This document shows, one piece after another, positions 3,618 through 24,000 of a stretch of DNA of 24,000 bases; position 1 is the stretch's first letter; the number at the start of each line of letters is the position of its first letter. A model generated the notes under the pieces. The model made no database searches. It had not been told where the DNA came from and was given only the letters and a program-made list of their open reading frames with translations. Source of the DNA: Thalassospira lohafexi (GTDB lineage: Bacteria > Pseudomonadota > Alphaproteobacteria > Rhodospirillales > Thalassospiraceae); the NCBI RefSeq assembly GCF_002844275.1, contig NZ_NXGX01000003.1, positions 267,549-291,548 on the forward strand, given 5' to 3'. The position numbers and the translations under genes are program-made.

Positions 3618-3640
3618 GAAATGATCTGACAGATCGGTGA

Positions 3641-5125: not shown

Positions 5126-5134
5126 CCAATTTGC

Positions 5135-7258: not shown

Positions 7259-7318
7259 TATTTTCTCTTCCTCTTACAAACATCTGACGGACCCGTAATC
7301 ATACACGAGTTCCGAACA

Positions 7319-7358
7319 CATTAATTATGAGGCTTTGGTAACAGCTTCATAATTAATG
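7319..7358 (-). promoter_or_regulatory. Long AU-rich stem-loop in the pnp 5' leader (candidate RNase III / autoregulatory hairpin)
   Basis: Minus-strand RNA reads CAUUAAUUAUGAAGCU-GUUACCAA-AGCCUCAUAAUUAAUG, with 15 of 16 positions paired. It is flanked by GGACCC/GGGUCC, which could extend the stem. It lies 61 nt upstream of the pnp ATG. Confidence 0.5.
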
Positions 7359-7422
7359 GGTCCGGATTAAGCATCTGGTCGGCCCATCCGACCCTACTTC
7401 CCGTGTTCTGATCCATCAGAAC

Positions 7423-7457
7423 AATAAAAAACGACGGCGGAGGTCACCCTCCGCCGT
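7423..7457 (-). terminator. rpsO rho-independent terminator
   Basis: Minus-strand RNA reads ACGGCGGAGG-GUGA-CCUCCGCCGU (10-bp GC-rich stem) followed by CGUUUUUUAUU. It lies 10 nt after the rpsO stop. Confidence 0.85.
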
Positions 7458-7466
7458 AGTTCGAAA

Positions 7467-7736
7467 TCAGCGGCGAATACCGAGACGTGCAATGACGGCC
7501 TCGTAACGCGACTGGTCTTTGCGCTGCAGATACTTCAGCAGGCGACGACGCTGGCCGACCATCATGAGAAGACCACGACGGCTATGGAAGTCGTGTTTGT
7601 GTTCTTTCATGTGTTCGGTAAGGTTCTTGATCCGTTCGGTCAGGATTGAAACCTGGACTTCGGGGGAACCGGTGTCACCGTCTTTCTGAGCGTATTCTTT
7701 GATCAGCTCGGCTTTGCGTTCAGCAGTAATCGACAT
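7467..7736 (-). CDS. rpsO: 30S ribosomal protein S15
   Basis: 89 aa: [15 protein letters not shown]...[18 protein letters not shown]...[25 protein letters not shown]. Confidence 0.97.
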
Positions 7737-7753
7737 CAGGCATCCTTTCGCCT

Positions 7754-8680
7754 TTAGAGATTAAAAACACGTACGGGCCGAATTTCGCCACCACTTATCT
7801 CCGCCAACGCAACAGCGCGGTTATGGAGCATGGCACAGACGATTTCGTCCTGCACGACGGGGTTTTCGAGGGCACTTCGCTTTGCAACCGGCAACAGTCC
7901 TACGGACTGGCCAGATGAAAGGCGTTGCGCCTCGACTTCGGTCAGGGCCAGCGCCGGGATGTCGTCCAGCGCGGTCTCAACCGGAAGCATTTTCTTCAAC
8001 ACCTCTTCGGGGTCCATTTCGAGCAGATCCTGCAAGCGAATGGAATCACCCTCCGAAAACGGCCCCGCCGAAGTCCGGCGAAGCGCGGCGATATAGCCAA
8101 CAGTACCAAGGCGCAGCGCAATATCGCGCGCCAAAGATCGCATATATGCCCCTTTGCCCGATATGACATCGAACACAGCATGATCGCGATCTGGCATATC
8201 GACCAGTCGAAGATCCTTGATCAGAATCGGACGTGGTTTTAACACCACCTCTTCATCGCGACGCGCAAGATCATAGGCACGCTTGCCGTTGACCTTGATC
8301 GCCGAAAACTTTGGCGGCACCTGCTGAATTTCACCCGTGAATTCATTCAGCACGGCCTTAATTTCGTCTGCGCTCGGACGATGATCAGACGTTTCGATAA
8401 CGTCGCCTTCTGCATCATCCGTGCTGCGTGCTTCGCCGAACTTCAGCGTAACACGATAACTTTTGCTGCCATCCATGACATAAGCAACCGTTTTGGTTGC
8501 TTCGCCAAAGGCAATTGGCAACACACCAGACGCCAATGGGTCAAGTGTCCCGCCATGTCCGGCTTTGGCTGCATCTAACAGACGACGCACCTGATTGACC
8601 ACGGTTGATGACGTGATCTCCAGAGGTTTGTCGACCGCCAACCAGCCATTAATGCTTTTACCGCGACGACGACGCGCCAT
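7754..8680 (-). CDS. truB: tRNA pseudouridine(55) synthase
   Basis: 308 aa with the catalytic-Asp motif [15 protein letters not shown] and [20 protein letters not shown]. The ATG shares 1 nt with the rbfA stop. Confidence 0.95.
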
Positions 8681-9099
8681 CAGTCGTCCTCATTTTCCGG
8701 TTCGTTTGAACCACCATCCGCAAGATCCTGAGCAACGTGCGGATCGCGCAACAAAGCTCCGATATGGTCGGCGACATCAAAACTTTTGTCTTCGATAAAT
8801 CGCAATGCTGGCACATATTTCATGTGAACCTTCTGGGCCACATGATTGCGCAGGTGACCCTTCTGGCGCGTCAGCGCCTTGAGCGAGGCTTCCGCCTCAC
8901 CCCCGCCAAGCGGCGTGAAGGATACCATAGCATTGCGCATATCCGGTGAAAGACTGACACCCGTAATGGTGACCGGGCGACGGGTCAGTTCCGGTTCGTA
9001 AATATCGCCGCGTTCCAACGCCTGCGACAGCGCCTGGCGGATTTCTTCCGCCACTCGGAGCTGTCGCTGACTTGGTGCTTTGGCTGGTTGCTTCGCCAT
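8680..9099 (-). CDS. rbfA: Ribosome-binding factor A
   Basis: 139 aa: SQRQLRVAEEIRQALSQAL...VTITGVSLSPDMRNAMV...KVHMKYVPALRFIEDKSFD, with an acidic C-terminal tail. Confidence 0.93.
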   Translation of the reverse strand: MAKQPAKAPSQRQLRVAEEIRQALSQALERGDIYEPELTRRPVTITGVSLSPDMRNAMVSFTPLGGGEAEASLKALTRQKGHLRNHVAQKVHMKYVPALRFIEDKSFDVADHIGALLRDPHVAQDLADGGSNEPENEDD

Positions 9100-9116
9100 T
9101 TCAGATCCTCACCGCC

Positions 9117-11798
9117 TTACAGTTCGACGGCGATTTCCTCGTTTTCGAAGCACTCAATCATATCGCCTGCCTGCAGATCATTATACTTGGCGAACGACAT
9201 GCCACATTCATAGCCCTCACGGACTTCTTTGACTTCGTCCTTGAAGCGACGCAGGGTCGACAGCTCGCCGGAGTGAATGACCACGTTGTCGCGCAAGAGA
9301 CGCACACCTGCACCACGTTTGACGGTACCTTCGGTAACCATACAACCAGCGATCTTGTTGCCAGAGATGGTGAACAGGTCGCGGATTTCGGCGTAGCCCA
9401 GGAACTTCTCGCGAACTTCCGGCGACAGCATACCCGACAGCATCTTTTTAATGTCATCAGCAACATCATAGATGATCGAATAATACCGAATATCAACGTT
9501 ATCACGACGCGACTGTTCGCGGGCCTGCTGGTTTGCACGCACGTTAAAGCCGATGATCAGCGCATTCGATGCACGGGCAAGTGTGACATCCGACTCGTTA
9601 ATTCCACCAACGCCGCTGTGCAGGACACGAACCGAGACTTCTTCGTTACCAAGCTTCTGCAAGGTCCCGATAAGCGCCTCGACCGACCCCTGAACGTCAC
9701 CCTTGATGACAATCGGAAGTTCTTTAACTTCACCGCTCTGCGCGAACATGTTCTCAAGTGCGGATTTCTTCATCGCCGCAGCCTGCGTTTCGCGGATACG
9801 ACGCTGACGGAAATCAGAAACTTCACGTGCTTTTGCTTCGTTTTCAACAACCACGAAGTCATCACCCGCTGCTGGAACACCGTTCAGGCCAGTGACCTCA
9901 ACCGGCATGCCCGGAATGGCATCGACAACACGGTTACCGTGATCATCAACCAGCGCACGAACACGGCCCCATTCTGCACCCGTGACAAAGATATCACCGG
10001 TTTTCAGGGTCCCGCGCTGAACCAGAACGGTTGCGACCGGACCACGGCCTTTTTCCATACGTGCTTCGACAACAACGCCATCGGCAACACGTTTGGGGTT
10101 GGCTTTAAGGTCAAGAACCTCAGACTGCAGCAGAATGGCTTCTTCAAGTTCGGTAAGGCCAAGACGCTGTTTGGCCGAAACCTCGACAGCCTGAACGTCA
10201 CCGCCCATTTCCTCGACCACAACTTCATGCTGAAGCAGCTGGGTTTTAACCCTTGAGGCATCGGCACCCGGTTTGTCGATCTTGTTGATCGCAATAATCA
10301 TCGGAACACCGGCTGCCTTGGCATGGCTGATGGCCTCGATCGTTTGCGGCATGACCGAGTCGTCGGCTGCAACAACAAGAACAACGATATCGGTAACCTT
10401 CGCACCGCGCGAACGCATTTCGGTAAATGCCGCGTGGCCCGGGGTATCAATAAAGGTGATTTTCGCACCGGTTGCCATGGTGACCTGATAGGCCCCAATG
10501 TGCTGGGTAATACCACCGGCTTCGCCACCGGCGACATCGGTTGCACGCAGCGCATCAAGCAAAGAGGTTTTACCATGGTCAACGTGGCCCATAACGGTCA
10601 CGACCGGCGGACGACCAATCAGATTGTCGTCATTTTCATCAACCGATACCAGCGATTCTTCAATATCAGCATCTGAAACACGCTTCATGTTATGGCCGAA
10701 TTCTTCTACCACAAGCTGGGCGGTATCTGGATCAAGGCTCTGGTTGATGGTCGCCATAACGCCCATGCCCATCAGGGACTTGATCACGTCAGCTGCACGT
10801 TCGGCCATACGGTTGGCAAGTTCCTGAACAGTAATGACGTCAGGAACGACCACATCACGCACGACTTTCTCCTTAGGTTTCTGCGGGCCCTGAGCACGGG
10901 CCTTGGCTTTGGCCTGCTGGCGTTTGATCGATGCCATTGAACGACGACGACCACTTTCGTCACCGCTCATGGCATTGTTGATCGACAGTTTGCCACGGCG
11001 ACGGCCATCATCGGTTTTGGCGCGCGCAGCCCCACCCTTTGCTTCTTCTTCGGCACGCTTGCGTGCTGCCAAACGAGCATTTTCCTCGTCGATTTCCTTG
11101 CGGCTTTTAGTCTTGGCAGCAGCAGGGGCCGTACGACGACGCTCTTCAGGAACCAGCGGTTCGGCCGGTTCACCAGGCATGATTTCTTCAGCTGCTTTTG
11201 GCTTACCAACCGGTTTTGGTTTGGAAGGTTTGCCTTTGGCTGTTGATGCCGCAATCGACTTTTCAACGTCTTCGACAGACATCGAGCCATCTTTAACCGG
11301 AGCATCTTCTGCTTTGTCAGCAGCTTCTGCCGCTTTGGCTTCTTCTGCCTTGCGGGCGTCTTCTTCGACCTTGCGCGCAGCTTCTTCGCGTGCACGCACC
11401 TCGGCATCCGCTTCATCCTGCTTGCGGCGCTCTTCAGCAGCCTTCAAAGCAGCCATGCGGGTTGCACGCTCACTGTTGGTCAGATTGCCCTGATCTTCAA
11501 CAACCGGACGCTTTTTTACTTCTTTAACCGGTTCCTTTTTAGCTTCCGGTGCCGATTTGGCTTCCGGTGCTTCTGGCGCCGCCTGTGGCTCCTCGGCAAC
11601 GAAATCCTTTTTCACTTCACGGAAGCGACCGGATTCGTTCTTTTCGAATGTCCGCTTCTTGCGCACTTCGACGGTCACAGATTTTGACCGTCCATGTGAG
11701 AAGTTTTGGCGAACCTGCCCTGCCTCGACCGTCTTGCTCAATTCAAGTTTCGATCTGTTGAGGCTCAGCGGTTTCTTCTCCTGATCGCGATCACTCAT
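9117..11798 (-). CDS. infB: Translation initiation factor IF-2
   Basis: G domain ([28 protein letters not shown]) plus a long Lys/Glu/Ala-rich N-terminal region. The ATG at 11798 (MSDRDQEKK) is preferred over the ORF-track GTG at 11870. Confidence 0.93.
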
Positions 11799-11878
11799 AA
11801 TCCGTCCAACTTCCTCATTTCCTGCGGGATCGACTTCACATGTCGACCCTGTCCTGTCCGTCCGGCGCACGCCTGTTG

Positions 11879-12469
11879 TCAGACTGCGCGAAATCCTTCA
11901 AGCCGCTTCAAGGAGCGACCCAGCCGTTTGGCCAGGCCTCCTGGCGCAACGGCCACATGTACTGCTTTTTCACGACCAAAAGCCGCGCCGATTTCAGCAG
12001 CGTTCAGAACGGAATAAATCGGCAGATCCCGGGCCTTGGCCTCGATCTTGGATTTTCCGTCTGCAGCACCATCGCGTGCTGCCAATATCAGAGCCGCACC
12101 CTCAGCAATTTGGGCACGTGCTTTTTCAAACCCGGCAACGGCTTGACCGGCACGTCGTGCAAGCGACAACAGATCAAGACATTTCTGCGTTAGCAGCTGC
12201 TCGATCCGGTCAGCAAGCTCGGGGTCGATCACGACTTTTTGCCGCGCTGCCCGGGCAAAGGCATTCTTTGCACAGGCGGTATTTATCACATCCCGCGACG
12301 GGCACAACCATAATCCCCGTCCCGGCAACCGTTCCTCAAGATCGGGAACAACCGAACCATCTGGTCCGATTACAACCCTGAGAAGATCTTCCTTGGCCCG
12401 GACCTCGCCGGTGACAATGCACCGGCGTTCCGGAACCTCGGCTACCTTGCCGCCTTTGCGATGCGACAT
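11879..12469 (-). CDS. YlxR/DUF448-type RNA-binding protein fused to an L7Ae-like domain
   Basis: 196 aa. RRCIVTGE...LLRVV...GRGLWLC is the YlxR motif, and the C-terminal half ([18 protein letters not shown]...[11 protein letters not shown]) is L7Ae-like. It occupies the conserved position between nusA and infB. A GGAGGA Shine-Dalgarno is present. Confidence 0.85.
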
Positions 12470-12487
12470 GGCGTCCTCCGATCGGCC

Positions 12488-14056
12488 TTAGGCCTGTTCG
12501 CTTTCAACTGCTTCGTCAGCAGTCTCAACGGTCTCTTCTTCAAGACCTTCGAACCAGCCAAGCTTGCGACGGGCTTCCATGATCATGTCGTTCGCCTGAT
12601 CCATGGTGATATTGTCGGCATCGCCGGCAAATTCGATCAGCTCGTCACTTGCCAGATCGGCGAAATCTTCAAGGTTTTTAACCTCGTTCTCGCCAAGACG
12701 CACAACAACTGCCAGCGACAGGCCGTTAAATTCGACCAGATCGTCAGCAACCTTAAGTTCTTCGCGGCGTTTCTGAAGACGTTCAGCTTCGTCCGACAGG
12801 AAGGTCCGTGCACGGGTACGAAGTTCCTCGGCGATTTCTTCTTCGAAACCTTCGATTTCTGCCAGCTCGGCCAACGGCACATAGCCAACTTCCTCGATCG
12901 AGGTAAAGCCTTCGGCGACCAGGAGATGGGCGATAACTTCATCAACATCAAGTGCCTTGATGAACATTTCCGCACGCTTGCGCGCTTCTTCCTGACGACG
13001 TTCGCTTTCGTCTTCTTCGGTCAGAATATCGATATCCCAACCGGTCAGCTGAGACGCCAGACGCACGTTCTGACCACGACGGCCAATGGCAAGGCTCAGC
13101 TGATCATCCGGCACGACGACTTCGATACGATTGGTTTCTTCATCCAGAACAACCTTGGTGACCTCGGCAGGCGCCAATGCGTTCACAACAAAGGTTGCCG
13201 GGTCTTCCGACCACTGAATGATATCGATTTTTTCGCCCTGCAATTCGGCAACAACCGCCTGCACACGCGAACCGCGCATACCGACACAGGCACCGACCGG
13301 ATCGATCGAGGTGTCTGACGACTGAACCGAGATTTTAGCGCGCGAACCCGGATCACGGGCCACCGATTTGATTTCGATAATACCGTCGTAGATTTCCGGT
13401 ACTTCCTGGGCAAAAAGTTTGGCCATGAAAGCAGGATGGGTCCGCGACAGGAAGATTTGCGGGCCGCGCTGTTCGCGGCGCACATCCAGGATCACCGCAC
13501 GAACGCGATCGCCTTGACGTACTGTTTCACGCGGGATCAGCTCTTCGCGGCGCAGGATGGCCTCGGCACGGCCGATATCAACCAGAACGTTGCCAAATTC
13601 AACACGCTTGACCAAGCCATTGATGACTTCGTCGGCACGATCTTTGTATTCTTCGAACTGACGTTCACGCTCTGCGTCGCGCACTTTCTGAACGATAACC
13701 TGTTTGGCGGTCTGTGCAGCGATACGACCAAAATCAATCGGCGGCAGCGGATCAATCAGGAATTCACCCAGATTGATGTTTTCATCACGGATACGCGCCT
13801 GTTCGAGCGACATCTGCGTAAAATCGTTTTCGATGTCATCGGTGACTTCAACGAAACGTGCGAGTTTGATCTCGCCGGTTTTACGGTCGATATGGGCACG
13901 GATGTCATGTTCATGGCCATATCTGGAGCGGCCAGCCTTCTGAATGGCCTGCTCCATTGCGCCAAGAACTTCATCACGATCAATGCCCTTTTCACGGGCA
14001 ACGGCATCAGCAACTTGCAAAAGTTCCGGCCGTGGCATTCCCGAAGTGGCTTCCAT
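12488..14056 (-). CDS. nusA: Transcription termination/antitermination factor NusA
   Basis: S1 and two KH domains (GACVGMRGSRVQAV; AIGRRGQNVRLASQLTGW) plus an acidic C-terminal repeat region. The ATG at 14056 has a GAGG Shine-Dalgarno 6 nt upstream. The ORF-track start at 14062 is TTG. Confidence 0.95.
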   Translation of the reverse strand: MEATSGMPRPELLQVADAVAREKGIDRDEVLGAMEQAIQKAGRSRYGHEHDIRAHIDRKTGEIKLARFVEVTDDIENDFTQMSLEQARIRDENINLGEFLIDPLPPIDFGRIAAQTAKQVIVQKVRDAERERQFEEYKDRADEVINGLVKRVEFGNVLVDIGRAEAILRREELIPRETVRQGDRVRAVILDVRREQRGPQIFLSRTHPAFMAKLFAQEVPEIYDGIIEIKSVARDPGSRAKISVQSSDTSIDPVGACVGMRGSRVQAVVAELQGEKIDIIQWSEDPATFVVNALAPAEVTKVVLDEETNRIEVVVPDDQLSLAIGRRGQNVRLASQLTGWDIDILTEEDESERRQEEARKRAEMFIKALDVDEVIAHLLVAEGFTSIEEVGYVPLAELAEIEGFEEEIAEELRTRARTFLSDEAERLQKRREELKVADDLVEFNGLSLAVVVRLGENEVKNLEDFADLASDELIEFAGDADNITMDQANDMIMEARRKLGWFEGLEEETVETADEAVESEQA

Positions 14057-14065
14057 ATCCAACCT

Positions 14066-14605
14066 CTATTCTGCGGTGTCGTCAGTCCGGCGTTGGCCGG
14101 TGACATGCGCGATCAATTCATCCGTCAACACCAATTTCGACTTCGCGATATCGGCCAGCGGCAACAAGACACGTTCGCCATCAACAATCAGGGCGACCGC
14201 ATTATCTTCAATCCCATCCAGCAAACCGCTGAAACGGCGACGACCATTTTGGGCCATCGTCAGTTCGACCTTTGCCTCAAACCCCTTCCACACTTCAAAA
14301 TGCGGTGCACGGGTTAAAGGACGGTCGATACCCGGGGAACTGACTTCAAGGTGATACGCACCTGAAATCGGGTCCTCGACATCCATAAGGGCAGAAACAG
14401 TACGGCTGATTTCGGCGCATTCAGTAACATTGATGCTGCCTTTGGCGTCCGCACGATCTGCCATGATCTGCAGGATATTGTGGTCCTGTCCGGTCATGGA
14501 GACGCGGACAAGTTCAAAACCCAGCGCGTTGATCGACGGTTCAATAATTTCCGTGACCTTCGCCATCAACGGGTCTTTTAACTGCTGTCCAATCAGTTCG
14601 GCCAT
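14066..14605 (-). CDS. rimP: Ribosome maturation factor RimP
   Basis: VTEIIEPSINALGFELVRV...AYHLEVSSPGIDRPL parallels E. coli RimP. The start is uncertain: ATG at 14605, ATG at 14566 (MAKV) or the ORF-track GTG at 14632. That GTG lies inside the U-tract of the upstream hairpin. Confidence 0.85.
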   Translation of the reverse strand: MAELIGQQLKDPLMAKVTEIIEPSINALGFELVRVSMTGQDHNILQIMADRADAKGSINVTECAEISRTVSALMDVEDPISGAYHLEVSSPGIDRPLTRAPHFEVWKGFEAKVELTMAQNGRRRFSGLLDGIEDNAVALIVDGERVLLPLADIAKSKLVLTDELIAHVTGQRRTDDTAE

Positions 14606-14620
14606 ATAGCGATGCCATAC

Positions 14621-14660
14621 CCCAAAATGCACAAAAGAGCGGGCGCAAGGCCCACTCTTT
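14621..14660 (-). terminator. Terminator-like hairpin in the rimP-nusA leader (candidate attenuator, also ends hemO transcription)
   Basis: Minus-strand RNA reads AAAGAGUGGGC-CUUGC-GCCCGCUCUUU (11 bp including one U.G pair) followed by UGUGCAUUUUGG. Confidence 0.55.
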
Positions 14661-14742: not shown

Positions 14743-15369
14743 TCAACCTTGGGATTGCGTGTCAGCCGTGCGCGCGGCCTCGACCATCAGCAGATTACGG
14801 AAAAATTCAAAGGCCGCACAGGCACCATCGCGAACCATCTCATCTTCATTCTTTCCAAGTGCCAAGCTATTGACCTGATCGACAAATTCACGCCAATGAC
14901 GCCCCCGGCCATCTGCATGTGCTGCCAGATGACGCGCCCCGAAATCAGCAGTAAGACCGATCCCCGCAGCCGCCTTTAACAAAAAGGCAGCACCCAGCGA
15001 TGATCCTTCACAAACATAAAGCCAGCCAACACGCGCCATTCCGATCTGCGCTATATCTTGGCGACTCCTGAAATCAGGAACCTCACATCCCATGTCGGCA
15101 ATATCCTTTGACACAGCAGCATATCGGCTTCGATCTGCCAGCCCCGGCATCAGTTGGTTCAGGTCATCGGCCACATAAAGCGGCCGCATTGCACGATGAA
15201 ATATATATTGCAGCCGAAGAAACCGGGTATAGTTTTCCCGACTGTCAAAGGGTGCCATTGCCATCACCATATCATCAACACTCTGATGGTCGGTCCGCGT
15301 TGATTGTTTCAGCTCAGCCAATCGCGTCGGCTGGCCTCGCATCGTCTCTGGTTGTGATATCTCGTTCAC
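14743..15369 (-). CDS. hemO: Heme oxygenase, HemO/PigA type (biliverdin-producing)
   Basis: 208 aa. LKQSTRTDHQSVDDMVM...PFDSRENYTRFLRLQYIFH...GWLYVCEGSSLGAAFLLK...GARHLAAHADGRGRHWREF closely parallels Neisseria HemO as I recall it, including the proximal-His segment and the GS-LG distal helix. The start is GTG with a GAGGGG Shine-Dalgarno 7 nt upstream. Confidence 0.85.
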   Translation of the reverse strand: MNEISQPETMRGQPTRLAELKQSTRTDHQSVDDMVMAMAPFDSRENYTRFLRLQYIFHRAMRPLYVADDLNQLMPGLADRSRYAAVSKDIADMGCEVPDFRSRQDIAQIGMARVGWLYVCEGSSLGAAFLLKAAAGIGLTADFGARHLAAHADGRGRHWREFVDQVNSLALGKNEDEMVRDGACAAFEFFRNLLMVEAARTADTQSQG

Positions 15370-15494: not shown

Positions 15495-16859
15495 TTAATC
15501 CTCTCGAAAGGCACGCGCGAACTGATCCGACAAAGGTTTAAAAAGATAACTCAGCGCAGAACGTTCTCCGGTTGCCAAAAAGGTTTCAACAGGCATGCCT
15601 GGGACAAGCTCCTGCCCATCAAGTTTGGCAAGTTCACCAGCCCCAATACGCACGCGCACCACATAATAACTCTCCCCCGTCAGCTCATCGCGATCCAACT
15701 CGGCGGAAATCCGCGACACTTCCCCAGACAATTCCGGCGTTGTCCGCTGGTTAAACGCAGTAAAGCGTAGCATCGCGGTTTGACCAGGCATGACCTGTTC
15801 GATATCACGCGGATTAACATGCGCTTCGATCACCAGTTCATCGCGGTCAGGCACAATCCCCATGATCCGATCACCACCGGCAACAACACCGCCCACCGTA
15901 TGAACAGCCATCTGATAAACCGTCCCATCATAGGGGGCACGAATGTCAATCCGGCGCAGTTGATCATTAAGCGCAATCTGGCGTTGCTGTAATTCGGCAA
16001 GCTGCTGATCAATATCGGTCAGTTCGGACAGAACGTCTGTCTGACGGTCACGATCAAGTTGCAAAATCTGCATTTCAGTTTCGGAAATCTGCATATGGGT
16101 CGCCGCAATTTGCGCAGTCAGTTCACCATGAGTCCCGTCGAGACTAGCCCGCTCCCTGCGTAACGCCGCTACCCGCGTAATCGGAACAAGTTGCTTGGCA
16201 TACAGCATCTCTAACCCGCCTAGTTCATCAACAATGTGCCTGCGTTCCTCTTCATTTGCTGATTTCTGTGCCGTTAATCCGACGATTGTTTCGGAAAGCT
16301 GGGCCAGTTTTTGCGCAAGCTGTTGTTTTTCACCTTCAAGGCTGCTGCGCCGTGCCGCAAACAGGCGTTTTTCGGCACTTACCAATTCAGAAAGCTTGGC
16401 ATCCTGCTGTCGACTTTTAAAAGCATCCGGCAGGGACAGCTCATCATTTACATCGCGTTCTGCGACCAGACGCATCCGACGCGCTTGAAAGGCATCAAGC
16501 TGGGATTCGACAATGCCAAGACTGGCACGCGCCATTGTATCATCGAGCCGGATCAAAAGATCACCGGCCTTAACCTGATCACCGTCATGGACGTGAATTT
16601 CACCAACGATGCCACCATCGGCATGCTGGACATCCTTGACGTTGCTTTCGACCACCATTTTACCAGATGCCACCACGGCCCCGGAAAGCTGGGCAAGAAA
16701 CAGCCACACCATCAAACCTGCCATCAAGGCAAAGACAATCCCGCCGCCCCAAAACATATGCTTTCTTAATGCCAGTTGTGCCGCAGATAGACCCGTCTGT
16801 TGCCGGCCTGCTGCCGAGGGGGATACGGACATCGCACGCACAGATGAAACACCGATCAT
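15495..16859 (-). CDS. hasE: HlyD-family type I secretion membrane fusion protein (HasE/PrtE-like)
   Basis: 454 aa with an N-terminal TM segment, long coiled-coil Q/L/E-rich segments and an HlyD-type beta barrel. The ATG overlaps the upstream ABC gene's stop (ATGA). Confidence 0.88.
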   Translation of the reverse strand: MIGVSSVRAMSVSPSAAGRQQTGLSAAQLALRKHMFWGGGIVFALMAGLMVWLFLAQLSGAVVASGKMVVESNVKDVQHADGGIVGEIHVHDGDQVKAGDLLIRLDDTMARASLGIVESQLDAFQARRMRLVAERDVNDELSLPDAFKSRQQDAKLSELVSAEKRLFAARRSSLEGEKQQLAQKLAQLSETIVGLTAQKSANEEERRHIVDELGGLEMLYAKQLVPITRVAALRRERASLDGTHGELTAQIAATHMQISETEMQILQLDRDRQTDVLSELTDIDQQLAELQQRQIALNDQLRRIDIRAPYDGTVYQMAVHTVGGVVAGGDRIMGIVPDRDELVIEAHVNPRDIEQVMPGQTAMLRFTAFNQRTTPELSGEVSRISAELDRDELTGESYYVVRVRIGAGELAKLDGQELVPGMPVETFLATGERSALSYLFKPLSDQFARAFRED

Positions 16860-18580
16860 GCTGTTTCTCCTACCTGTCGGACGGTTTTGCGCAAGATGTC
16901 ATCGCGCGCACCAAAGGCGACCTGACGTCCGTCCTGAATAATGGTTGTCAGGTTAACCGTCGCCAGTGCACCGGGACGATGCGCTATCAAAACAACAATG
17001 GCACCACGTTCACGCGCATCGCGGACTGCCTGCAAAAGCGACTGTTCACCCGCGCTATCAAGATTGGAATTGGGCTCATCAAGCACGATCAGGAACGGAT
17101 CTCCAAATAGGGCGCGTGCCAAACCAATCCTTTGACGCTGCCCCCCTGACAGAACCACACCACCGGCCCCGACTTTGGTGTCATAACCATTGGGCAGGGA
17201 CTGGATCAGGTCATGCACACCCGCAGACCGGGCCGCCGAAACGATATCTTCGGATCTGGCATCAGGGATAAGCCGGGCAATGTTGCGGGCAACCGTGTCG
17301 TCAAACAGTTCAACATCTTGTGGCAAATACCCGACATGACGCCCCAGCCGTTCAGGATCCCAATGTGATAATTCAGCCCCGTCAATGCGGATGGAACCTC
17401 CCCGAATGGTGCCAATGCCGACCATTGCCCGCCCAAGAGTCGATTTTCCCGATCCGCTGGGACCAATGATCCCCAAACCATCTCCGGCCTTAAGCACCAG
17501 ATCATTAACCCGCAACAATACTTTTTGGGCATGTACAGACTCCCCACCCGACGTTGCCACTACAAGATTTGAGATTGTCAGACCTTGCGTTGGCGCAGGC
17601 AACTGCATGCGTTCGGAATGAGCGTCCTGTTTACTGAGAATGTGATCCAGGCGGGTGCGCGCTTGTCGGGCTGCGACAAACCCCCGCCAATTGGCAATGG
17701 CCTGCTCGACCGGTGAGAGTGCGCGTGCGGTCAGGATTGATGCAGCCACCATGGCACCGGGCGTGACTTCCTGCCGGATCGCAAGATAGGCCCCAAGGGC
17801 AAGCACAATGGATTGCAACGCAAGCCGAATGACCTTGATATAAGCCGAAAATGTTGAATTAACGTCGCCAACGACGGTGTTTTCCCTCAAGTAGCGATCA
17901 TTTTGCTGACCCCATTGGTGCCGAAAAGCCCCCAACATCCCCATCGCCCGAATGGCTTCGGCGTTACGGCACCCTGCTTCGACCAGATTGCTTCGCACGA
18001 CTGTTTGCGCATTCATGTGCGCGACCTTCTTACGGGTCACCAGTTCACTGACAAATGTCAGCGTTATTAAAACAATCCCGCCGACCAACGCCAATATGCC
18101 AAGCCAAGGGTGGAAAACAAAAACAATCCCCAGAAAAAGCGGCATCCACGGCAGATCACAAATCGCAATAGGACCGGCCCCACCAAGGAATTGGCGAATT
18201 TGATCAAGGTCATTGAGTGGCTGCGCCGTTTCCCGACCATTGCGCAAGCGAATGGTAAGCGTCTGTTCCAATGCCTTTGGCCCAATCTGCTCATCAACCC
18301 GCCAGCCAATCCGCACCAGCATGCGGGCGCGCAGGGCATCCACACCGCCCAGAAACAAATAAAGACCGATCACAAGACCAATCAACGCCAGAAGGGTCGG
18401 GACACTCTGACTGGCCAGCACACGATCATATACCTGAAGCATAAAAAGCGGGCCCGTCAGCATCAGCAGGTTTGAGACACCGCTCAATCCTGCGACAACC
18501 CAGAACACACGGCGCAAAGATGCAATCGCGGATCCAATTGGCGATTGGGACGCACCATGCGCAGTGTTTTGGGGGGACAT
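16856..18580 (-). CDS. hasD: Type I secretion ABC permease/ATPase, PrtD/AprD/HasD type (no N-terminal peptidase domain)
   Basis: N-terminal NLLMLTGPLFMLQVYDRVL motif, Walker A GPSGSGKST, signature LSGGQRQRIGLARAL and Walker B LIVLDEPNSNLD. The ATG at 18580 is preferred. The ORF-track GTG at 18649 lies inside a GC hairpin. Confidence 0.9.
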   Translation of the reverse strand: MSPQNTAHGASQSPIGSAIASLRRVFWVVAGLSGVSNLLMLTGPLFMLQVYDRVLASQSVPTLLALIGLVIGLYLFLGGVDALRARMLVRIGWRVDEQIGPKALEQTLTIRLRNGRETAQPLNDLDQIRQFLGGAGPIAICDLPWMPLFLGIVFVFHPWLGILALVGGIVLITLTFVSELVTRKKVAHMNAQTVVRSNLVEAGCRNAEAIRAMGMLGAFRHQWGQQNDRYLRENTVVGDVNSTFSAYIKVIRLALQSIVLALGAYLAIRQEVTPGAMVAASILTARALSPVEQAIANWRGFVAARQARTRLDHILSKQDAHSERMQLPAPTQGLTISNLVVATSGGESVHAQKVLLRVNDLVLKAGDGLGIIGPSGSGKSTLGRAMVGIGTIRGGSIRIDGAELSHWDPERLGRHVGYLPQDVELFDDTVARNIARLIPDARSEDIVSAARSAGVHDLIQSLPNGYDTKVGAGGVVLSGGQRQRIGLARALFGDPFLIVLDEPNSNLDSAGEQSLLQAVRDARERGAIVVLIAHRPGALATVNLTTIIQDGRQVAFGARDDILRKTVRQVGETA

Positions 18581-18627
18581 TTTGCCAAACACGTTTTTTA
18601 TATTCCAAAGATGTTTTATGTTGGGGT

Positions 18628-18651
18628 GGGTGCCGCTGTTACGCGGCACCC
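18628..18651 (-). promoter_or_regulatory. GC-rich hairpin in the hasA-hasD spacer
   Basis: GGGTGCCGC-N6-GCGGCACCC, a perfect 9-bp stem with no U-tract. A second hairpin lies at 18667-18694 (GCCCGU..ACGGGC plus CC/GG). Confidence 0.45.
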
Positions 18652-18701
18652 TGCATCAAGACTTTGCGCCCGTTCCGCTGCTTGTGGGACGGGCCGTTTT
18701 G

Positions 18702-19433
18702 TTAAACGAAGTCAGTTGCGTCGATATCGGTGTAATCAACACCGGTCAGCGTGACCGTGCCATTGGCATGGGAGATCAGCGCATTGCCGCTGCCATCATC
18801 GGCAACAGTGACCGAGGCATAATCGATATCAAGAAGATCGGTACCGTCGGTAAAATCGGTCACGGTGTCGTCACCGAAATCTGCTGACGTATCGAATTCG
18901 AAGGTATCCGCACCGCCATTGCCGGTCAGAACATCATCACCGGCCCAGCCGCCGATGACGTCATCACCAGTGCTGCCGTTGATTTCGACACCTTCAGATG
19001 CAAAGACCGACTGCAGTTCCGAACTATCACCACTGAAAAGCCCGGTCAGAACCGTACCGGTTTCACTCGAACTCAAAGCAAGCCCGGAAATATCGACGCT
19101 CGAATCGCTCAGATAGTAATCACCATTGGCATCCTGAGCCTTGGTTTCACCGAACGAAAGCTGATCAAGATTACCAACGATCTCATGCGTACTGATGTCA
19201 TAGCTGAAATCGGTGCCACTGTTGGATGAGGCCAGGAAACCGCCCGTATAGCTCGAACCGCTGTCTTCATCGCTCAAATAATATTGTTCGCCCTGAAACA
19301 AACCGTTGCCATTCAGGAACTCACCATAGTTGAACAGACCCTTGGAAAAGTTTGCATCAAAGTCTGAAAGCATACCTTTGAAGTCCACACCGTTTCCTGA
19401 TCCATCTGCATTCAGATCAATCGTGATCGTCAT
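18702..19433 (-). CDS. hasA: HasA-like hemophore fused to RTX repeats and a T1SS C-terminal secretion domain
   Basis: 243 aa from the ATG at 19433, with a GAGGAG Shine-Dalgarno 8 nt upstream. The N-domain aligns by eye with Serratia HasA. Matching segments (this protein vs HasA) are HEIVGNLDQLSFGE vs HTLYGQLDSLSFGD, SVDISGLALSS vs DVSFGGLNLSS, and VLTGLFSGDSSEL vs VVYGLMSGDTGAL. Residues 153-179 form three GGxGxDxUx-like nonamers. The tail is D/T-rich and ends DATDFV. Confidence 0.75.
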   Translation of the reverse strand: MTITIDLNADGSGNGVDFKGMLSDFDANFSKGLFNYGEFLNGNGLFQGEQYYLSDEDSGSSYTGGFLASSNSGTDFSYDISTHEIVGNLDQLSFGETKAQDANGDYYLSDSSVDISGLALSSSETGTVLTGLFSGDSSELQSVFASEGVEINGSTGDDVIGGWAGDDVLTGNGGADTFEFDTSADFGDDTVTDFTDGTDLLDIDYASVTVADDGSGNALISHANGTVTLTGVDYTDIDATDFV

Positions 19434-19479
19434 TTCGGAATCTCCTCGTTGTTTGTCACCCCAACCATTGAAGCAACAA

Positions 19480-19512
19480 ACATGAGAATGACTCTTAGTT
19501 TCATAATGAGTC
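19480..19512 (-). promoter_or_regulatory. Operator-like motif upstream of hasA (shared with the hasR upstream region)
   Basis: The minus strand GACTCATTATGAAACTAAGAGTCATTCTCATGT matches plus strand 22451-22483 at 26 of 33 positions. It has a weak Fur-box resemblance and lies next to a TTGACT hexamer. Confidence 0.45.
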
Positions 19513-19552
19513 AATATGTTTTTTTGTTTAAAAACAATTAGTTAATAGGAAG

Positions 19553-19587
19553 CACCAAAACACCGGCCAGGGAATTTCCTGACCGGT
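19553..19587 (-). terminator. Rho-independent terminator / attenuator between hasR and hasA
   Basis: Minus-strand RNA reads CCGGUCAGG-AAAUUC-CCUGGCCGG (9 bp with one U.G pair) followed by UGUUUUGGUG. It lies 27 nt after the hasR stop. Confidence 0.55.
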
Positions 19588-19613
19588 TAATGCCATTTAA
19601 ATTGCCTTGTGAC

Positions 19614-22352
19614 CTAGAAATTACCGCTTAAAGTCACAATCGCCGTCCGTCCCGGTGCAGCCGCATATGTTCCCCCTGATCCCTGAACGTAAGCTTCATC
19701 AAGCATGTTGTTCACCGCAAATCGCAGCGAGACATTCTCGTTGACTTCATAGGAGCTGTAGAAGTCGAACACACGATACTTGAAATACTCGCCGACCGAC
19801 GTTGACAGTGTTGCATGGCCAATATTGTCTTGCGGGTACACAAATGTCGCGCGCATCCCCATGACCAGATCTTGATCAAACAACCTGAAACCGCCATCAA
19901 GTGTGTATTTTCGTTTTGGCGGTGCATAAACACCATTAAGGCTGGATGCAGATCCATATTGATCTGCGACCGAAAGGGCTGCTGCGGAGTATGTGGTATC
20001 AAGGATGTAGGGGTCATAAGTCCCCTTAAGGTCCATGTCCGAGGTCGTCAGTGTTCCACCGAGAAAATACTCACCGCCATCATAGGCCATCTCAAGTTCG
20101 GTACCGTGGATATAGACTGGGTCGGACAGGTTCACCATACCAGCCGCCTGATAGGTCCCGGTCAAACTGGCCAGAAGAAGCGATGGAGTCGGCACATAGC
20201 CCATGGTGATGTAGTTATCCACCGTGGTACGATAATAAGCAACTTTGGCCCGGAAACCGTCGCCTTGTTGCAAAACATTGTCGAATTTGAAATTCGCACC
20301 AATTTCCTGTGTACGCGACTCTTCAGCCTTAAGATTAGCATTTGAGAAAAAGGAAAGCGGTACACCGCCAAGATGCGAACCTTTCAACATCGTCTCCATC
20401 ACAGTCGGAGCACGAAAGTTTTCACGATAATTGGCGAACAACTGGATACCATTGACAGGTGTAATGCCGAAACCGAATGACGGGGAAACCTTGTCTTGGA
20501 CCAAGTCAATATCAAGAGACGCATCATTGTCAGTCGCACATTGATTTGCCGAGCCAAAGAAATTTGGAACCGCTTCACACCAGTAAGAATCTCCATCCAG
20601 AGCAAACCGGTCATAGCGAACACCTGCGCTCAGCTCAAACAGATCATTCCAGCCATATGTTCCCGTTAGATAGCCGCCGTAGACATCCCGCTGACCGGCA
20701 GGCGTATTGCCTTCAACTTGATAAGGAAGGTCGCCTGAACCACCTAAATCTTCGACTTCCGAACGTGTTGTGGCTTTGTCGTGGAAAAACTCGGTCCCAT
20801 AGCCTAAACCAAATTCACTAAGCCCATCTCCAAACCGGGTCAGATCAAATTCGCTACGGTTCGCGATATCGCCGCCCGCTGTGTCCACTGTAAAAAGATT
20901 GGTGTAAGGATCATGCTCGATCGCGCCTGCCGCGCTGTAGCGGGCGGGCCGATACTGACTGTTTTCGGTGCGCGTCCAGAACAGATTGGTATCAAGATTC
21001 ACCAAATCCGTTTCCGGGTTCCAGTTATGCTTAGCTGTTAAAGTGTCGGTCTTGGTCTCATTGAAGTCTGTTTTTTCGTTCGCGATGTCATTGGTTTTGG
21101 CATAGTTGCTTTTTGATCCGACATATCCAAGATTGAGCTCCTGATCTTCGGTCAAATAGATATTTGCCTTAACCAATCCAGACGTCTGACGCAGAAAAGT
21201 GTAGTCGGAACGGGAACTGTCTCGATCGTGGTATGTTCCGTTGCCGGTAACAAACAAACCGGGATTATGTGTACCAGCCCGATAATTCCCTATCACCTTA
21301 CGGCTGATGGTTGCCGAAACATCAAGTTTCGGTGAAATCCGTGCACCGGCGGATGCGTCACCAGCAAAATCGTAGCTGTTGGTACCGTGACTAATATTGA
21401 CCTTGCCGCCCCAATCCTCATCATCATCAAGGATATCATTGGTATTCAGTGTCCGCATGGTCACAATACCGGCTGAACTCCCCGCACCACCATTTTGATT
21501 AAGGTTAGATTTTTCAATCTCAACTTCTGCCAAAAGTGCTGGATCAAGATAGACGCGCGATGAAGCACCGTGAGAGGCTTGGTTATAGTTCTGTCGTGCC
21601 CCGTCGATATTAACGTTTACCCGGCCCATTTCCTGCTGACCGCGGACATTGACGGTCAATCCCGGATCACGGGCATCGTTTGAAATGTCGACACCGGCAA
21701 CTTGATTGAAAATGTCGCGTGCTTCCCGCACAGGGGATTTGCGCATGCTTTCCTGCGTAATCACGGCAATCGACCCAGGTGTTTCATAAACCTCATCAGG
21801 AACGCCGTTTGGGCCCAGATTACGAATTGCTGCCGTTACCGTGATTGGCTCTGTGATATTTGCCGAACTCTGCGCATTGTCCTGCTGTGGATTTGCAATC
21901 GAGATGGTGCTTTGGTTGATCACACTCCATGCCAAACCGCTTTGGCGAAGCAAAATATCGAGCGCGCTCGCAGTGGTCATATCACCATTCACACCGGCGC
22001 TTGTGGCGCCATCAGGCAGCACACCGTCAAACACAACATCCACGCCGGAAATACGCGAAAAAACAACCAACGCACTGCTTAATGACTGTGCTTCGATATC
22101 AAAGCGATGTTGCCCAGCCTGCAATCGAGCCGGTCCAGTATCAGCCTGTGCCAGTTCCGGTCCCTCTCGCGTTTGCAGTAAACTTTCATTTTTGGACTGC
22201 GCCTGGGCAACGGCAAAACCCGGCGCAGACATCACGATACCAGCACTCAATATTGCGGCCACGACCAGATGCGAACGCCCCAATGATGTTGTTGCCCCAA
22301 GCAAATTTTTATTCATCGTGCTGCACACACGACCCACCCCGTCGGAAGGCAT
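19614..22352 (-). CDS. hasR: TonB-dependent heme/hemophore receptor with N-terminal STN signalling domain (HasR-like)
   Basis: Signal peptide ending FAVAQA and an STN-like segment (FDIEAQSLSSALVVFSRISGVDVVF...ALDILLRQSGL). TonB box EPITVTA, plug domain and terminal F. Heme-receptor boxes NFRAP...GSH...SNANLKAE map to nt 20331-20417. The ATG at 22352 has an AGGAG Shine-Dalgarno 9 nt upstream; the ATG at 22316 is an alternative. Confidence 0.9.
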   Translation of the reverse strand: MPSDGVGRVCSTMNKNLLGATTSLGRSHLVVAAILSAGIVMSAPGFAVAQAQSKNESLLQTREGPELAQADTGPARLQAGQHRFDIEAQSLSSALVVFSRISGVDVVFDGVLPDGATSAGVNGDMTTASALDILLRQSGLAWSVINQSTISIANPQQDNAQSSANITEPITVTAAIRNLGPNGVPDEVYETPGSIAVITQESMRKSPVREARDIFNQVAGVDISNDARDPGLTVNVRGQQEMGRVNVNIDGARQNYNQASHGASSRVYLDPALLAEVEIEKSNLNQNGGAGSSAGIVTMRTLNTNDILDDDEDWGGKVNISHGTNSYDFAGDASAGARISPKLDVSATISRKVIGNYRAGTHNPGLFVTGNGTYHDRDSSRSDYTFLRQTSGLVKANIYLTEDQELNLGYVGSKSNYAKTNDIANEKTDFNETKTDTLTAKHNWNPETDLVNLDTNLFWTRTENSQYRPARYSAAGAIEHDPYTNLFTVDTAGGDIANRSEFDLTRFGDGLSEFGLGYGTEFFHDKATTRSEVEDLGGSGDLPYQVEGNTPAGQRDVYGGYLTGTYGWNDLFELSAGVRYDRFALDGDSYWCEAVPNFFGSANQCATDNDASLDIDLVQDKVSPSFGFGITPVNGIQLFANYRENFRAPTVMETMLKGSHLGGVPLSFFSNANLKAEESRTQEIGANFKFDNVLQQGDGFRAKVAYYRTTVDNYITMGYVPTPSLLLASLTGTYQAAGMVNLSDPVYIHGTELEMAYDGGEYFLGGTLTTSDMDLKGTYDPYILDTTYSAAALSVADQYGSASSLNGVYAPPKRKYTLDGGFRLFDQDLVMGMRATFVYPQDNIGHATLSTSVGEYFKYRVFDFYSSYEVNENVSLRFAVNNMLDEAYVQGSGGTYAAAPGRTAIVTLSGNF

Positions 22353-22413
22353 ATTCAATTTCTCCTGATTTCTCAGAAATGCAAATGCGTCGCATTCATT
22401 TCCTGTTACTTTC

Positions 22414-22528: not shown

Positions 22529-23449
22529 TTATGCGGCGCGAACAACCGTAAGATAGTCGGTGAATTGATCGACCTTTATCGACAAAACTGTCGAAAGCGC
22601 ATCCAGAACATGCCGTGACCGGTCGAGATCAACGACAATTGTTACCTTGCGCGATTTCAAGGCGTCTCCAAGGATGACGATCTTGCCATCTTGCCAGCGT
22701 TCAAGAATATTGACGACGTCGTCAAGACGCTCGCCAATAAACACAAGTTGTCCATTCCGCCAGGCAAGCGCATTGCCGACATTGACCTTTCTTGGATCGC
22801 TGACCCAACCATCGCCATATCGAACTTCCTGCCCGGCCTGAACCGGCTTCATGGTTCCGCCAGCCCGTAAGACAAGACCATTTTGCTCGGCGATCACGGT
22901 TGTCGTGCCAGCGTAGTTTGCCACATCAAACCTGCCGCCTTCCGACCAAGTGGCTCCGCCAGTCGCGGCAACAAAAAAGTTTGTCCCTGCAACTCGATGG
23001 TCAAACCAGGCCTCACCATGATGAATGGCGACGCCTGAAACACCCTGTTTCGCAACAAGTGACAAGGACGTATCGCTGGCAAGCATCGCTTTAACACCGC
23101 CCGGTAGAACCATTTCGCGGCGCTCACCACTGGCTGTTCTGATGTCTGCCAAGGGATGGAACCGATGCGCAGTCCATCCAGCGCCGACAACCATAGCGGC
23201 AATTGTGCCCCCCAGAAATGCCCGACGGCCAAGATTTCTGTTGGCGTCAATTTGCAAACTGGAACTACCATTCCACAAACGTTCAATTTCATCGAAAGCA
23301 TGAAGGTGACTCGGATCTTCGGCGACCCAGCGCGCAAAAGCTTTTCGGTCATTTTCCGTTTCACTGCCATCAAGAAGCAACGCAAACCAATAAGCGGCCT
23401 GATCGCTCACGGTTCTTGGCATGGTGTCAAAATGTGTTTCCGGGATCAT
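22529..23449 (-). CDS. hasS: FecR-family anti-sigma factor / transmembrane sensor (HasS-like)
   Basis: N-terminal anti-sigma segment (AAYWFALLLDG...FARWVAEDPSHLHAFDEIERLW), one TM segment (AFLGGTIAAMVVGAGW) and a FecR periplasmic domain. The start is uncertain: ATG at 23449, ATG at 23422 or the ORF-track TTG at 23485. Confidence 0.85.
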   Translation of the reverse strand: MIPETHFDTMPRTVSDQAAYWFALLLDGSETENDRKAFARWVAEDPSHLHAFDEIERLWNGSSSLQIDANRNLGRRAFLGGTIAAMVVGAGWTAHRFHPLADIRTASGERREMVLPGGVKAMLASDTSLSLVAKQGVSGVAIHHGEAWFDHRVAGTNFFVAATGGATWSEGGRFDVANYAGTTTVIAEQNGLVLRAGGTMKPVQAGQEVRYGDGWVSDPRKVNVGNALAWRNGQLVFIGERLDDVVNILERWQDGKIVILGDALKSRKVTIVVDLDRSRHVLDALSTVLSIKVDQFTDYLTVVRAA

Positions 23450-23523
23450 ATCGGCATCGCCGTTCTTTATAAAACTCCCCCGCAAAGACGCAAATATACG
23501 CTTTGATGTGCGGGACCTGATAA

Positions 23524-23569: not shown

Positions 23570-24000
23570 TTATGGTTTTTCCATCGCCTCTTTGACAACG
23601 CCTAAGGCCTTGACCATCCGACTGAACGCCGTTTGGGTCGGAATCCCCAACTGCTCGCCAATCTGGACATATGTTTTGCCTTCGACACGGGCCAAAATAA
23701 AGACATCACGCAATGGTCGGGGCAGGGACTCAAGCACCTTTTGAAGGTGACGCAGCTCCTGACGAGACCAGGCAATCTGTTCCGGAGACGGGGCGTCGTC
23801 GGCGATGACTTCAAACGCCAGTTCAGAATCCTGCACAAAGGTCAGAATGCGTTCGCGTCTGAAATGGTCAATGACAAGATTGTTGGCAGTTCGATAAAGA
23901 TATGATTGCGCAAAACATTGCTCAGGCAGGCTCGGTGTTGCAACAACCCGAACAAAAGTATCCTGCACAATATCATCGGCAAGATGCCACGATATCCTGC
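23570..24000 (-). CDS. hasI: ECF (FecI-type) RNA polymerase sigma factor, 5' end outside the window (HasI-like)
   Basis: The frame is open to the window edge and reads ...RISWHLADDIVQDTFVRV (region 2). Region 4 reads LPRPLRDVFILARVEGKTYVQIGEQLGIPTQTAFSRMVKAL. The ORF-track GTG at 23968 is internal. Confidence 0.85.
   Translation of the reverse strand, partial: RISWHLADDIVQDTFVRVVATPSLPEQCFAQSYLYRTANNLVIDHFRRERILTFVQDSELAFEVIADDAPSPEQIAWSRQELRHLQKVLESLPRPLRDVFILARVEGKTYVQIGEQLGIPTQTAFSRMVKALGVVKEAMEKP

Follow-up and report, generated by a model that had tools for sequence, protein, structure and literature searches.

The DNA examined is a stretch of 24,000 nucleotides from Thalassospira lohafexi (RefSeq assembly GCF_002844275.1, contig NZ_NXGX01000003.1, positions 267,549 to 291,548 of the forward strand), hereafter called the window, to which all coordinates below refer unless another locus is named. 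On its minus strand, at 18702–19433, lies a clean open reading frame (ORF) of 243 codons plus stop, comprising a HasA-like domain, an RTX (repeats-in-toxin) module, and a C-terminal secretion tail. Its sequence makes it very probable that the product is a HasA-type hemophore (a secreted, heme-scavenging protein) with a Ca2+-binding RTX secretion module. The coordinates had been given correctly in a first-pass annotation made from the DNA letters, and a check of both strands assigned the gene to the minus strand, the plus-strand frame being full of stops. A Shine–Dalgarno sequence (GAGGAG) is located 8 nt upstream of the ATG at 19433, and in the family alignment every homologue starts at the same position with the common sequence M-[TA]-[IV]. 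The protein is highly acidic (45 Asp and Glu residues against 3 Lys and Arg), is free of cysteine, and lacks an N-terminal signal peptide, the HasA-like domain beginning at residue 1. Full-length relatives (33 sequences of 239–255 aa, 52–100% identical, all from Thalassospira where named) were aligned, and the alignment was used to build an AlphaFold2 (AF2) model with a predicted local distance difference test score (pLDDT) of 93.7 and a predicted template modelling score (pTM) of 0.89.

All neighbouring genes described here are encoded on the minus strand as well. Upstream of the hemophore gene are those for an extracytoplasmic function (ECF) sigma factor resembling HasI (23570–24000; Sigma70_r2/r4), a FecR-type anti-sigma factor resembling HasS (22529–23485; DUF4880, FecR, and FecR_C), and a HasR-like TonB-dependent receptor with STN, plug, and barrel domains (19614–22358; assigned via Pfam, TIGR01785, and alignment to HasR). 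The sigma factor gene is cut by the window end; its orthologue at the syntenic Thalassospira locus L060 has 166 aa, of which residues 25–166 are 100% identical up to the window edge. Directly downstream of the hemophore gene follow a type I secretion system (T1SS) ATP-binding cassette (ABC) protein of the PrtD/HasD type (16856–18649; TIGR01842 at 676 bits, ABC_membrane and ABC_tran), which has no N-terminal C39/CLD domain, and a membrane-fusion protein (MFP) of the HlyD family (15495–16859; TIGR01843 at 390.5 bits, HlyD_3), as the first-pass annotation had implied when it spoke of adjacent secretion genes. A heme oxygenase of the HemO/HO-1 type (14743–15369; PF01126 at 81 bits) comes next, with rimP and nusA downstream of it. 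Mechanically called ORF starts overshoot for two of these genes, for which alignment to the L060 orthologues gave likely starts at 18580 instead of 18649 (ABC) and 23449 instead of 23485 (anti-sigma factor). The receptor scored 442.9 bits against the heme receptor model TIGR01785 (cutoff 317), and its best PDB match was HasR of Serratia marcescens (E = 2e-78 over residues 71–906, signalling domain included), while receptors of the ShuA/HmuR type matched at only about 1e-22. By hand count on the HasR alignment, HasR His189 corresponds to receptor His263, and HasR His603 to a position one residue away from receptor His662, which is found between FRAP and NANL. By sequence, then, the genes for the ECF sigma factor, anti-sigma factor, HasR-like receptor, hemophore, PrtD-type ABC protein, MFP, and heme oxygenase make up a complete has-type operon. 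This gene order recurs in other Thalassospira, and the heme oxygenase is kept at the same position in the Thalassospira loci.

The HasA-like, putatively heme-binding domain spans residues 1–148 (18990–19433, minus strand). When the window protein was searched on its own against PDB sequences with phmmer, HasAp was recovered at no better than E = 0.0034, over residues 2–142. A profile built from the 33 relatives matched every solved HasA structure at E-values from 4e-11 to 4e-6 (HasAp of Pseudomonas aeruginosa/protegens, 4e-11; Yersinia HasA, 6e-8; Serratia HasA, 2e-7), with profile positions 1–148 covering HasAp 1–154, and six of the 33 close relatives passed the Pfam HasA model PF06438 (best E-value 3.8e-19). 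The structure prediction and superposition proposed in the first-pass annotation returned the HasA fold: the top 43 matches of the AF2 model in a Foldseek search of the PDB were all HasA (E about 6e-9), at target-normalised template modelling (TM) scores of 0.53–0.65. Profile and model together give solid support to the N-domain as a true HasA homologue with the predicted HasA alpha/beta fold. The resemblance of residues 1–148 to HasA claimed in the first-pass annotation thus held, and its description of a nearly gap-free correspondence did not, since identity to HasA is 21–29%, HMMER alignments to HasAp need at least four indels, and the Tyr–His hairpin is shorter. In the alignment of the profile to the PDB sequences, Tyr78 (19200–19202, minus strand) aligns with HasA Tyr75, and His83 (19185–19187, minus strand) with HasA His83. 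Both residues are invariant in all 33 family members and in a broad set of 24 sequences, and at least 90% conserved across 89 diverse representatives of the domain. The block H83-EIV-G-N-LD-Q-LSFG is present in the form that the first-pass annotation had described (H83-x-x-x-G-x-LD-x-LSFG). The likely equivalent of HasA His32 is a variable loop residue, Tyr36 (19326–19328, minus strand), at which the 33 family members have His (19), Tyr (9, including the window protein), Phe (4), or Trp (1). The HasA of Y. pestis is also devoid of His32, so this residue is not strictly family-defining. Because residue 36 is polymorphic, heme coordination may differ among Thalassospira alleles (His/Tyr, Tyr/Tyr, or Tyr only).

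The C-terminal part of the protein is of a different type. Three tandem RTX nonamers occupy residues 153–179 (18897–18977, minus strand; found by regular expression, Pfam, and the AF2 model), and a 64-aa acidic cap plus secretion tail occupies residues 180–243 (18705–18896, minus strand; assigned by alignment to the C-termini of AlgE, MIS38, and serralysin). The regular expression G..G.D.[LIVFMYW]. found the nonamers in register (153–161 GSTGDDVIG, 162–170 GWAGDDVLT, 171–179 GNGGADTFE), exactly as first annotated, and the tail proved to be Asp/Thr-rich (15 Asp and 11 Thr in 64 aa) and to end in DATDFV, again as described before. Within the tail, the motif D-x-[VI]-x-DF-x-x-G-x-D-x-[LI]-D is found; the stretch DDTVTDFTDGTDLLDIDY fits the form D-x-I-x-DF-x-x-G-x-D-x-ID that occurs after the repeats in AlgE, lipase, and serralysin proteins. 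Residues ~142–243 align to the R-modules of AlgE-type epimerases (4.5e-5), as well as to the C-terminal regions of MIS38 lipase and serralysin and to NCBIfam serralysin and RTX-hemolysin models, and HemolysinCabind was detected at E ≤ 0.01 in 27 of the 33 family members. In the AF2 model, predicted strands follow each other at a distance of nine residues (149–152, 159–161, 168–170, 177–179) and lead into a beta-sandwich. The next Foldseek match after HasA was the C-terminal beta-roll of the Pseudomonas lipase MIS38 (107 columns, root-mean-square deviation 2.6 Å). According to the model and these alignments, residues ~149–243 form a genuine, if minimal, RTX-plus-cap secretion module of the serralysin/lipase/AlgE type.

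We therefore consider it likely that the gene product is a two-module secreted hemophore of the HasA type, in which a HasA fold is joined to an RTX/T1SS module within a has-type operon. Homology, the predicted fold, the conserved ligand residues, the operon context, and the co-variation of receptor barrel and hemophore N-domain (see below) were computed; heme binding, secretion, Ca2+ dependence, and signalling are what we infer. Module 1 (residues 1–148) would most likely bind heme via Tyr78, whose phenolate would be activated by His83, in the manner of HasA Tyr75/His83, and the second axial position would be supplied or shielded by the variable loop residue, i.e., Tyr36 here and His in most relatives. 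Module 2 (residues ~149–243), made up of the predicted three-nonamer beta-roll, a beta-sandwich cap, and an acidic C-terminal signal that would stay uncleaved, would direct the unfolded chain to the adjacent PrtD-type ABC protein and MFP and a TolC-like channel encoded elsewhere. Seawater contains Ca2+ at about 10 mM. Binding of Ca2+ outside the cell would fold module 2 and thereby nucleate or stabilise folding of the hemophore. The holo-hemophore would then dock on the adjacent HasR-like receptor, which would draw on TonB for the energy to import the heme and would use its N-terminal signalling domain to activate the FecR-type anti-sigma/ECF sigma pair, and the heme oxygenase would subsequently free the iron from the heme. 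That secretion and folding follow a logic different from that of HasA, with Ca2+ dependence and SecB independence, is something we only infer; the N-terminal HasA domain could fold prematurely in the cytoplasm and could still need an anti-folding factor.

The two modules behave differently among Thalassospira alleles. Mean identity within the Thalassospira family was 78% for the C-module and 57% for the N-domain (N-domain minimum 30%), and for the relatives P0005 and P0008, the C-modules were 100% identical with N-domains only 52–58% identical. An interpretation of the variants as paralogues was rejected for P0008 and P0015, the loci of which are syntenic with the window; since this synteny holds for L060, the locus of P0008, P0008 and the window protein are alleles of one locus. 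Between the window and L060, identity was 100% for the sigma factor, 98.7% for FecR, 97.8% for HasR residues 1–185, 70.4% for HasR residues 190–914, 52.5% for hemophore residues 1–140, 100% for hemophore residues 149–243, 98.1% for the ABC protein, 97.6% for the MFP, 95.7% for HemO, and 100% for both RimP and NusA. Sliding DNA identity between the window and L060 (7600–10430) was 45–80% inside ~19010–21790 and 97–100% outside. The divergent, sharply bounded cassette takes in the plug and barrel of the receptor together with the N-domain of the hemophore. Its breakpoints coincide with domain boundaries: one is located where the receptor signalling domain ends (residue ~190), the other where the HasA fold ends (residue ~140). 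At L062, the third syntenic locus, which belongs to a species further removed, the sequences diverged throughout, yet the C-module (82% identity) was again better conserved than the ABC protein (74%). This divergence pattern, which is comparative evidence, links the N-domain to the receptor plug and barrel, and the RTX module to the secretion genes. It suggests that cassettes are exchanged at domain boundaries and that recognition between hemophore and receptor may be strain-specific.

To survey the architecture beyond Thalassospira, the N-domain profile was run in an exhaustive HMMER scan against 1.84 billion cluster representatives, which yielded 96 matches, of which 89 were analysed. The exhaustive scan was needed, as a word-indexed search with the N-domain profile returned only Thalassospira and one distant protein. 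RTX nonamers (1 to >18 copies) followed the HasA-like domain in 62 of the 67 representatives longer than 215 aa, and these RTX-bearing proteins mostly ended in DFxF[VA]-like sequences. Among the 22 representatives of at most 215 aa, 20 were without RTX repeats, and 15 of those ended in AA, mostly as "...LAA." Pfam searches of the 89 representatives detected HemolysinCabind in 61, HasA in 37, and Peptidase_M10_C in 13. A second scan, performed on contigs of one genome per species with a hand-made degenerate DNA pattern (Tyr-His-GxLD-FG), gave 59 loci, of which 53 were confirmed by hidden Markov model (HMM), the remaining six being chance matches within expectation. Since this pattern is biased toward Y-x4-H and against the canonical Y-x7-H, the genome scan cannot be used to count canonical HasA; nearly all of the 53 confirmed loci were RTX-bearing, with 1–29 nonamers. 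They belonged to Shinella, Rhizobium, Agrobacterium, Pararhizobium, Thalassospira, Albimonas, Hansschlegelia, Methylopila, Methylobrevis, Chenggangzhangella, Acuticoccus, Chelatococcus, Azorhizobium, and Bradyrhizobium, and to metagenome-assembled genomes (MAGs) of Devosiaceae and Comamonas. Even though only off-centre 8-kb stretches were covered, 31 of the 53 loci had an adjacent HasR-like receptor and 19 an ABC protein; the MFP and a heme oxygenase were each present at 16.

Database names for these proteins vary. In the 90% cluster of the window protein, WP_276654847.1 is named HasA in RefSeq and all others "calcium-binding protein." A protein of Pseudovibrio spp. is named "heme acquisition protein HasA" by NCBI (the HasA-RTX protein WP_008546373.1 of Pseudovibrio has 258 aa), and the HasA-RTX proteins of Methylobrevis (WP_069306952.1, 317 aa) and Shinella (WP_244760242.1, 375 aa) are named "calcium-binding protein." Full-text literature searches, with subscription-only papers outside their reach, found no description of a HasA-RTX protein; a Dechloromonas haemagglutinin with a HasA-like domain was matched and judged irrelevant. 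The HasA-RTX form is widespread in Alphaproteobacteria, inconsistently annotated, and apparently uncharacterised. The first-pass annotation had called for profile searches for such fusions in other genomes, and many were found; its suggestion of an undescribed architecture stood insofar as no paper was found and only some RefSeq entries carry the HasA name, and did not stand insofar as the fusion is common (62 of 67 representatives, 53 loci) and in part already named.

A further set comprises P0064 (1453 aa), P0076 (1981 aa), P0074 (934 aa), the genes at L006 (3091–7155; 1355 aa, 22 nonamers) and L024 (1741–5526; 1262 aa, 29 nonamers), as well as P0102 (3118 aa), P0119, and P0131. It contains giant proteins that open with a HasA-like domain followed by long RTX, Ig, or cadherin-like regions, and a few proteins with several internal HasA-like stretches. 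They may be surface-anchored, heme-binding, adhesin-like proteins.

Several observations weigh against a HasA-type hemophore with an RTX module. On the side of the N-domain, the window protein alone gave no match to Pfam HasA (PF06438) at E ≤ 0.1, the Tyr–His spacing is Y-x4-H instead of the Y-x7-H of HasA (a hairpin three residues shorter), the His32-equivalent ligand is not conserved (Tyr36, or Phe34 by another alignment), and the alignment of this loop to HasA is ambiguous, with phmmer and the family profile giving different results. On the side of the C-module, the canonical nonamers number only three, and Pfam HemolysinCabind reached 20.6 bits on the window protein, below the gathering cutoff of 23. 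In the neighbourhood, no TolC-like or TonB/HasB gene was found within the 24,000-nt window. Moreover, in a Rhizobium/Shinella subgroup (300–375 aa, 8–16 nonamers; L027 756–1736, L039 3853–4977, and L001, L008, L012, L021, L029–L032, L038, L044, L050, and L058), there is no receptor, T1SS, or heme oxygenase nearby, and the flanks are occupied by genes for sulfate assimilation (cysDN/cysH-like) and by betaine genes (betA/B/C/I-like). Because of this subgroup without heme-related neighbours, heme scavenging may not be general for HasA-RTX proteins. The single window protein likewise gave no HasA match in NCBIfam, which returned RTX-type similarity of the C-terminus only; given the clear family profile and predicted fold, the misses of Pfam and NCBIfam were not read as absence of homology.

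The variable His32-equivalent position and the shorter hairpin could also be explained if the HasA fold served another ligand, such as another tetrapyrrole or a metallophore, or if the main role of the protein were to trigger the receptor/ECF-sigma cascade as its ligand and not to shuttle a nutrient. Such a function would fit the fast divergence of the N-domain (mean identity 57%, minimum 30%) and the orphan homologues in non-heme contexts, and many PDB entries, by title, show HasA with non-natural metal complexes. We regard it as unlikely in view of the invariant Tyr/His pair, the receptor scoring above the TIGR01785 cutoff with the HasR heme-ligand His regions kept, and the heme oxygenase in the operon here and at 16 other loci. 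It is quite improbable that the protein does not diffuse freely and is retained at the surface as a tethered heme trap, with the RTX/acidic module bridging to lipopolysaccharide or to the receptor via Ca2+ and thus serving for more than secretion. The C-module is conserved beyond the secretion genes (100% between alleles; 82% against 74% for the ABC protein in L062), the pTM of 0.89 suggests a fixed two-domain arrangement, and a diffusible hemophore would presumably be costly in dilute marine habitats; however, no anchoring motif was identified in the protein, and the lipases and proteases that have similar RTX tails are enzymes released from the cell. A generic RTX "calcium-binding protein" with incidental likeness to HasA, or a decaying or chimeric gene, as most database names and the missing Pfam HasA match of the window sequence might suggest, is strongly disfavoured and very improbable, because the profile and fold matches are strong and full-length, the ORF is intact with its Shine–Dalgarno sequence and shared by over 30 relatives of equal length, and the operon position is conserved. 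The two-module, secreted HasA-type hemophore is hence the preferred reading.

For the evolutionary relation of RTX-bearing and canonical forms, an unrooted neighbour-joining tree of the 89 HasA-like domains was calculated and bootstrapped on p-distances with 60 replicates. The RTX-less proteins ending in "...LAA" occupied essentially one region of the tree and the RTX-bearing proteins spanned the rest, with Thalassospira nearby. Ten core canonical representatives were grouped with at most one intruder in 49 of the 60 replicates; monophyly of all 15 canonical representatives was not supported, and deep branches were unresolved in this p-distance bootstrap. Mean identity was 31% among the RTX-bearing domains versus 40% among the canonical ones, the RTX-bearing set being more diverse. 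Three RTX-bearing proteins have the canonical "...LAA/VAA" end (P0085, 276 aa; P0077, 269 aa; and P0057/L007 from the Comamonas MAG, 289 aa) and could thus be intermediate between the RTX-bearing form and the canonical one. Because the split is unrooted, loss and gain of the RTX repeats cannot be told apart here, and a firm claim of either was rejected, as the bootstrap supports a core canonical clade only. Loss of the repeats by canonical HasA is thus a hypothesis, and the statement of the first-pass annotation that the RTX module replaces the HasA secretion tail was not supported, since it assumes an evolutionary direction that the tree cannot settle. A wider scenario, in which the RTX form is the majority and possibly ancestral form, the textbook HasA of gamma-proteobacterial pathogens (without RTX and SecB-dependent) is derived, and cassette exchange in Thalassospira creates strain-specific pairs, is put forward tentatively and seems to us rather less than probable. 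If true, the exchanged cassettes would represent privatised heme scavenging or escape from phages or bacteriocins, with one secretion module and one signalling module being reused.

In comparison with HasA of Serratia marcescens, Pseudomonas aeruginosa/protegens, and Yersinia pestis (PF06438; PDB 1B2V, 3ELL, 4JET, 3CSL), the homologous domain spans nearly the whole fold. Shared features are the Tyr ligand with its His hydrogen-bond partner, the block H-x3-G-x-LD-x-[LI]S[FL]G, the absence of a signal peptide, and the position of the gene beside a HasR-type receptor and a C39-less ABC protein and MFP, under an ECF sigma/anti-sigma pair. The window protein differs from HasA in sequence (21–29% identity), in the hairpin shortened by three residues, in Tyr36 instead of His32, and in ~95 extra C-terminal residues (RTX, cap, and DATDFV) compared to the short flexible "...LAA" tail of HasA. 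According to reviews (PMC8277102, PMC3034196), canonical HasA lacks an RTX domain and is dependent on SecB, in agreement with what the first-pass annotation had stated. With serralysin proteases, MIS38/family I.3 lipases, and AlgE R-modules, the window protein has in common the GGxGxDxUx nonamers, the D-x-I-x-DF-x-x-G-x-D-x-ID motif, the acidic tail with a hydrophobic end, the predicted beta-roll, and the PrtD-type ABC protein; unlike them, it has only three canonical nonamers and a passenger that is a small binding protein and not an enzyme. Other alphaproteobacterial HasA-RTX proteins share the same two modules, and many are located beside HasR-like receptors, PrtD-type ABC/MFP genes, and heme oxygenases, but their N-domains are 26–45% identical, they have 1–29 nonamers, and some exceed 1000 aa or stand alone.

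Pyoverdine-FpvA types in Pseudomonas aeruginosa are strain-specific siderophore/receptor loci, and the cassette resembles them, by analogy only, in that scavenger and receptor diverge together between nearly identical flanks; it differs in that the unit is cut at protein-domain boundaries and that heme would presumably be the ligand of every type. HasA is a standard T1SS substrate without RTX repeats, which needs SecB and contacts with the ABC protein beyond its C-terminal signal. The HasA-RTX set would provide a comparative system for asking whether RTX repeats contribute secretion rate, an extracellular folding ratchet, or chaperone independence, and would also bear on the relations between T1SS substrate classes and on whether canonical HasA lost its repeats. 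It would widen the range of heme acquisition by hemophores beyond a few pathogens to Alphaproteobacteria that live free in the sea and in soil, a point of relevance for heme as an oceanic source of iron, and many of its genes are mislabelled as "calcium-binding protein."

Potential regulatory elements, all on the minus strand, were found on either side of the hemophore gene. Directly behind the receptor gene, a scan for terminator-like structures detected a stem-loop that carries a T-run (19562–19587). Its arms covary among seven alleles (GGT/ACC, GAT/ATC, AAC/GTT), and because both arms change together between alleles, the structure is conserved; located in the hasR–hemophore intergenic region, this element could serve to terminate or attenuate transcription or could mark a site of mRNA processing. 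The hemophore gene is preceded by a conserved promoter/operator-like block that resembles a Fur box (TTGACTC...GAGTCATTCTCAT; 19481–19514). This block is kept in seven alleles as TTGACTC-N8-GATAATnAGAGTCATTCTCAT within the otherwise divergent hasR–hasA spacer, and contains the inverted repeat TGACTC/GAGTCA. Hand-counted against the Fur consensus, the block matched at 15 of 19 positions in most alleles and at ~13 of 19 in the window allele. The block suggests that the hemophore gene may have its own iron-regulated promoter. A GC-rich 11-bp hairpin without a T-run on the coding strand (18668–18694) separates the stop codon of the hemophore from the ABC gene and might determine how much hemophore transcript is made relative to transporter transcript. 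The remainder of the window (1–14632) contains large ORFs that are probably the rimP-nusA-ylxR-infB-rbfA translation cluster, as found downstream in the syntenic loci L060–L062, and the insertion point of the has operon, with trmB on one side and rimP on the other, was the same in each of the three Thalassospira loci compared.

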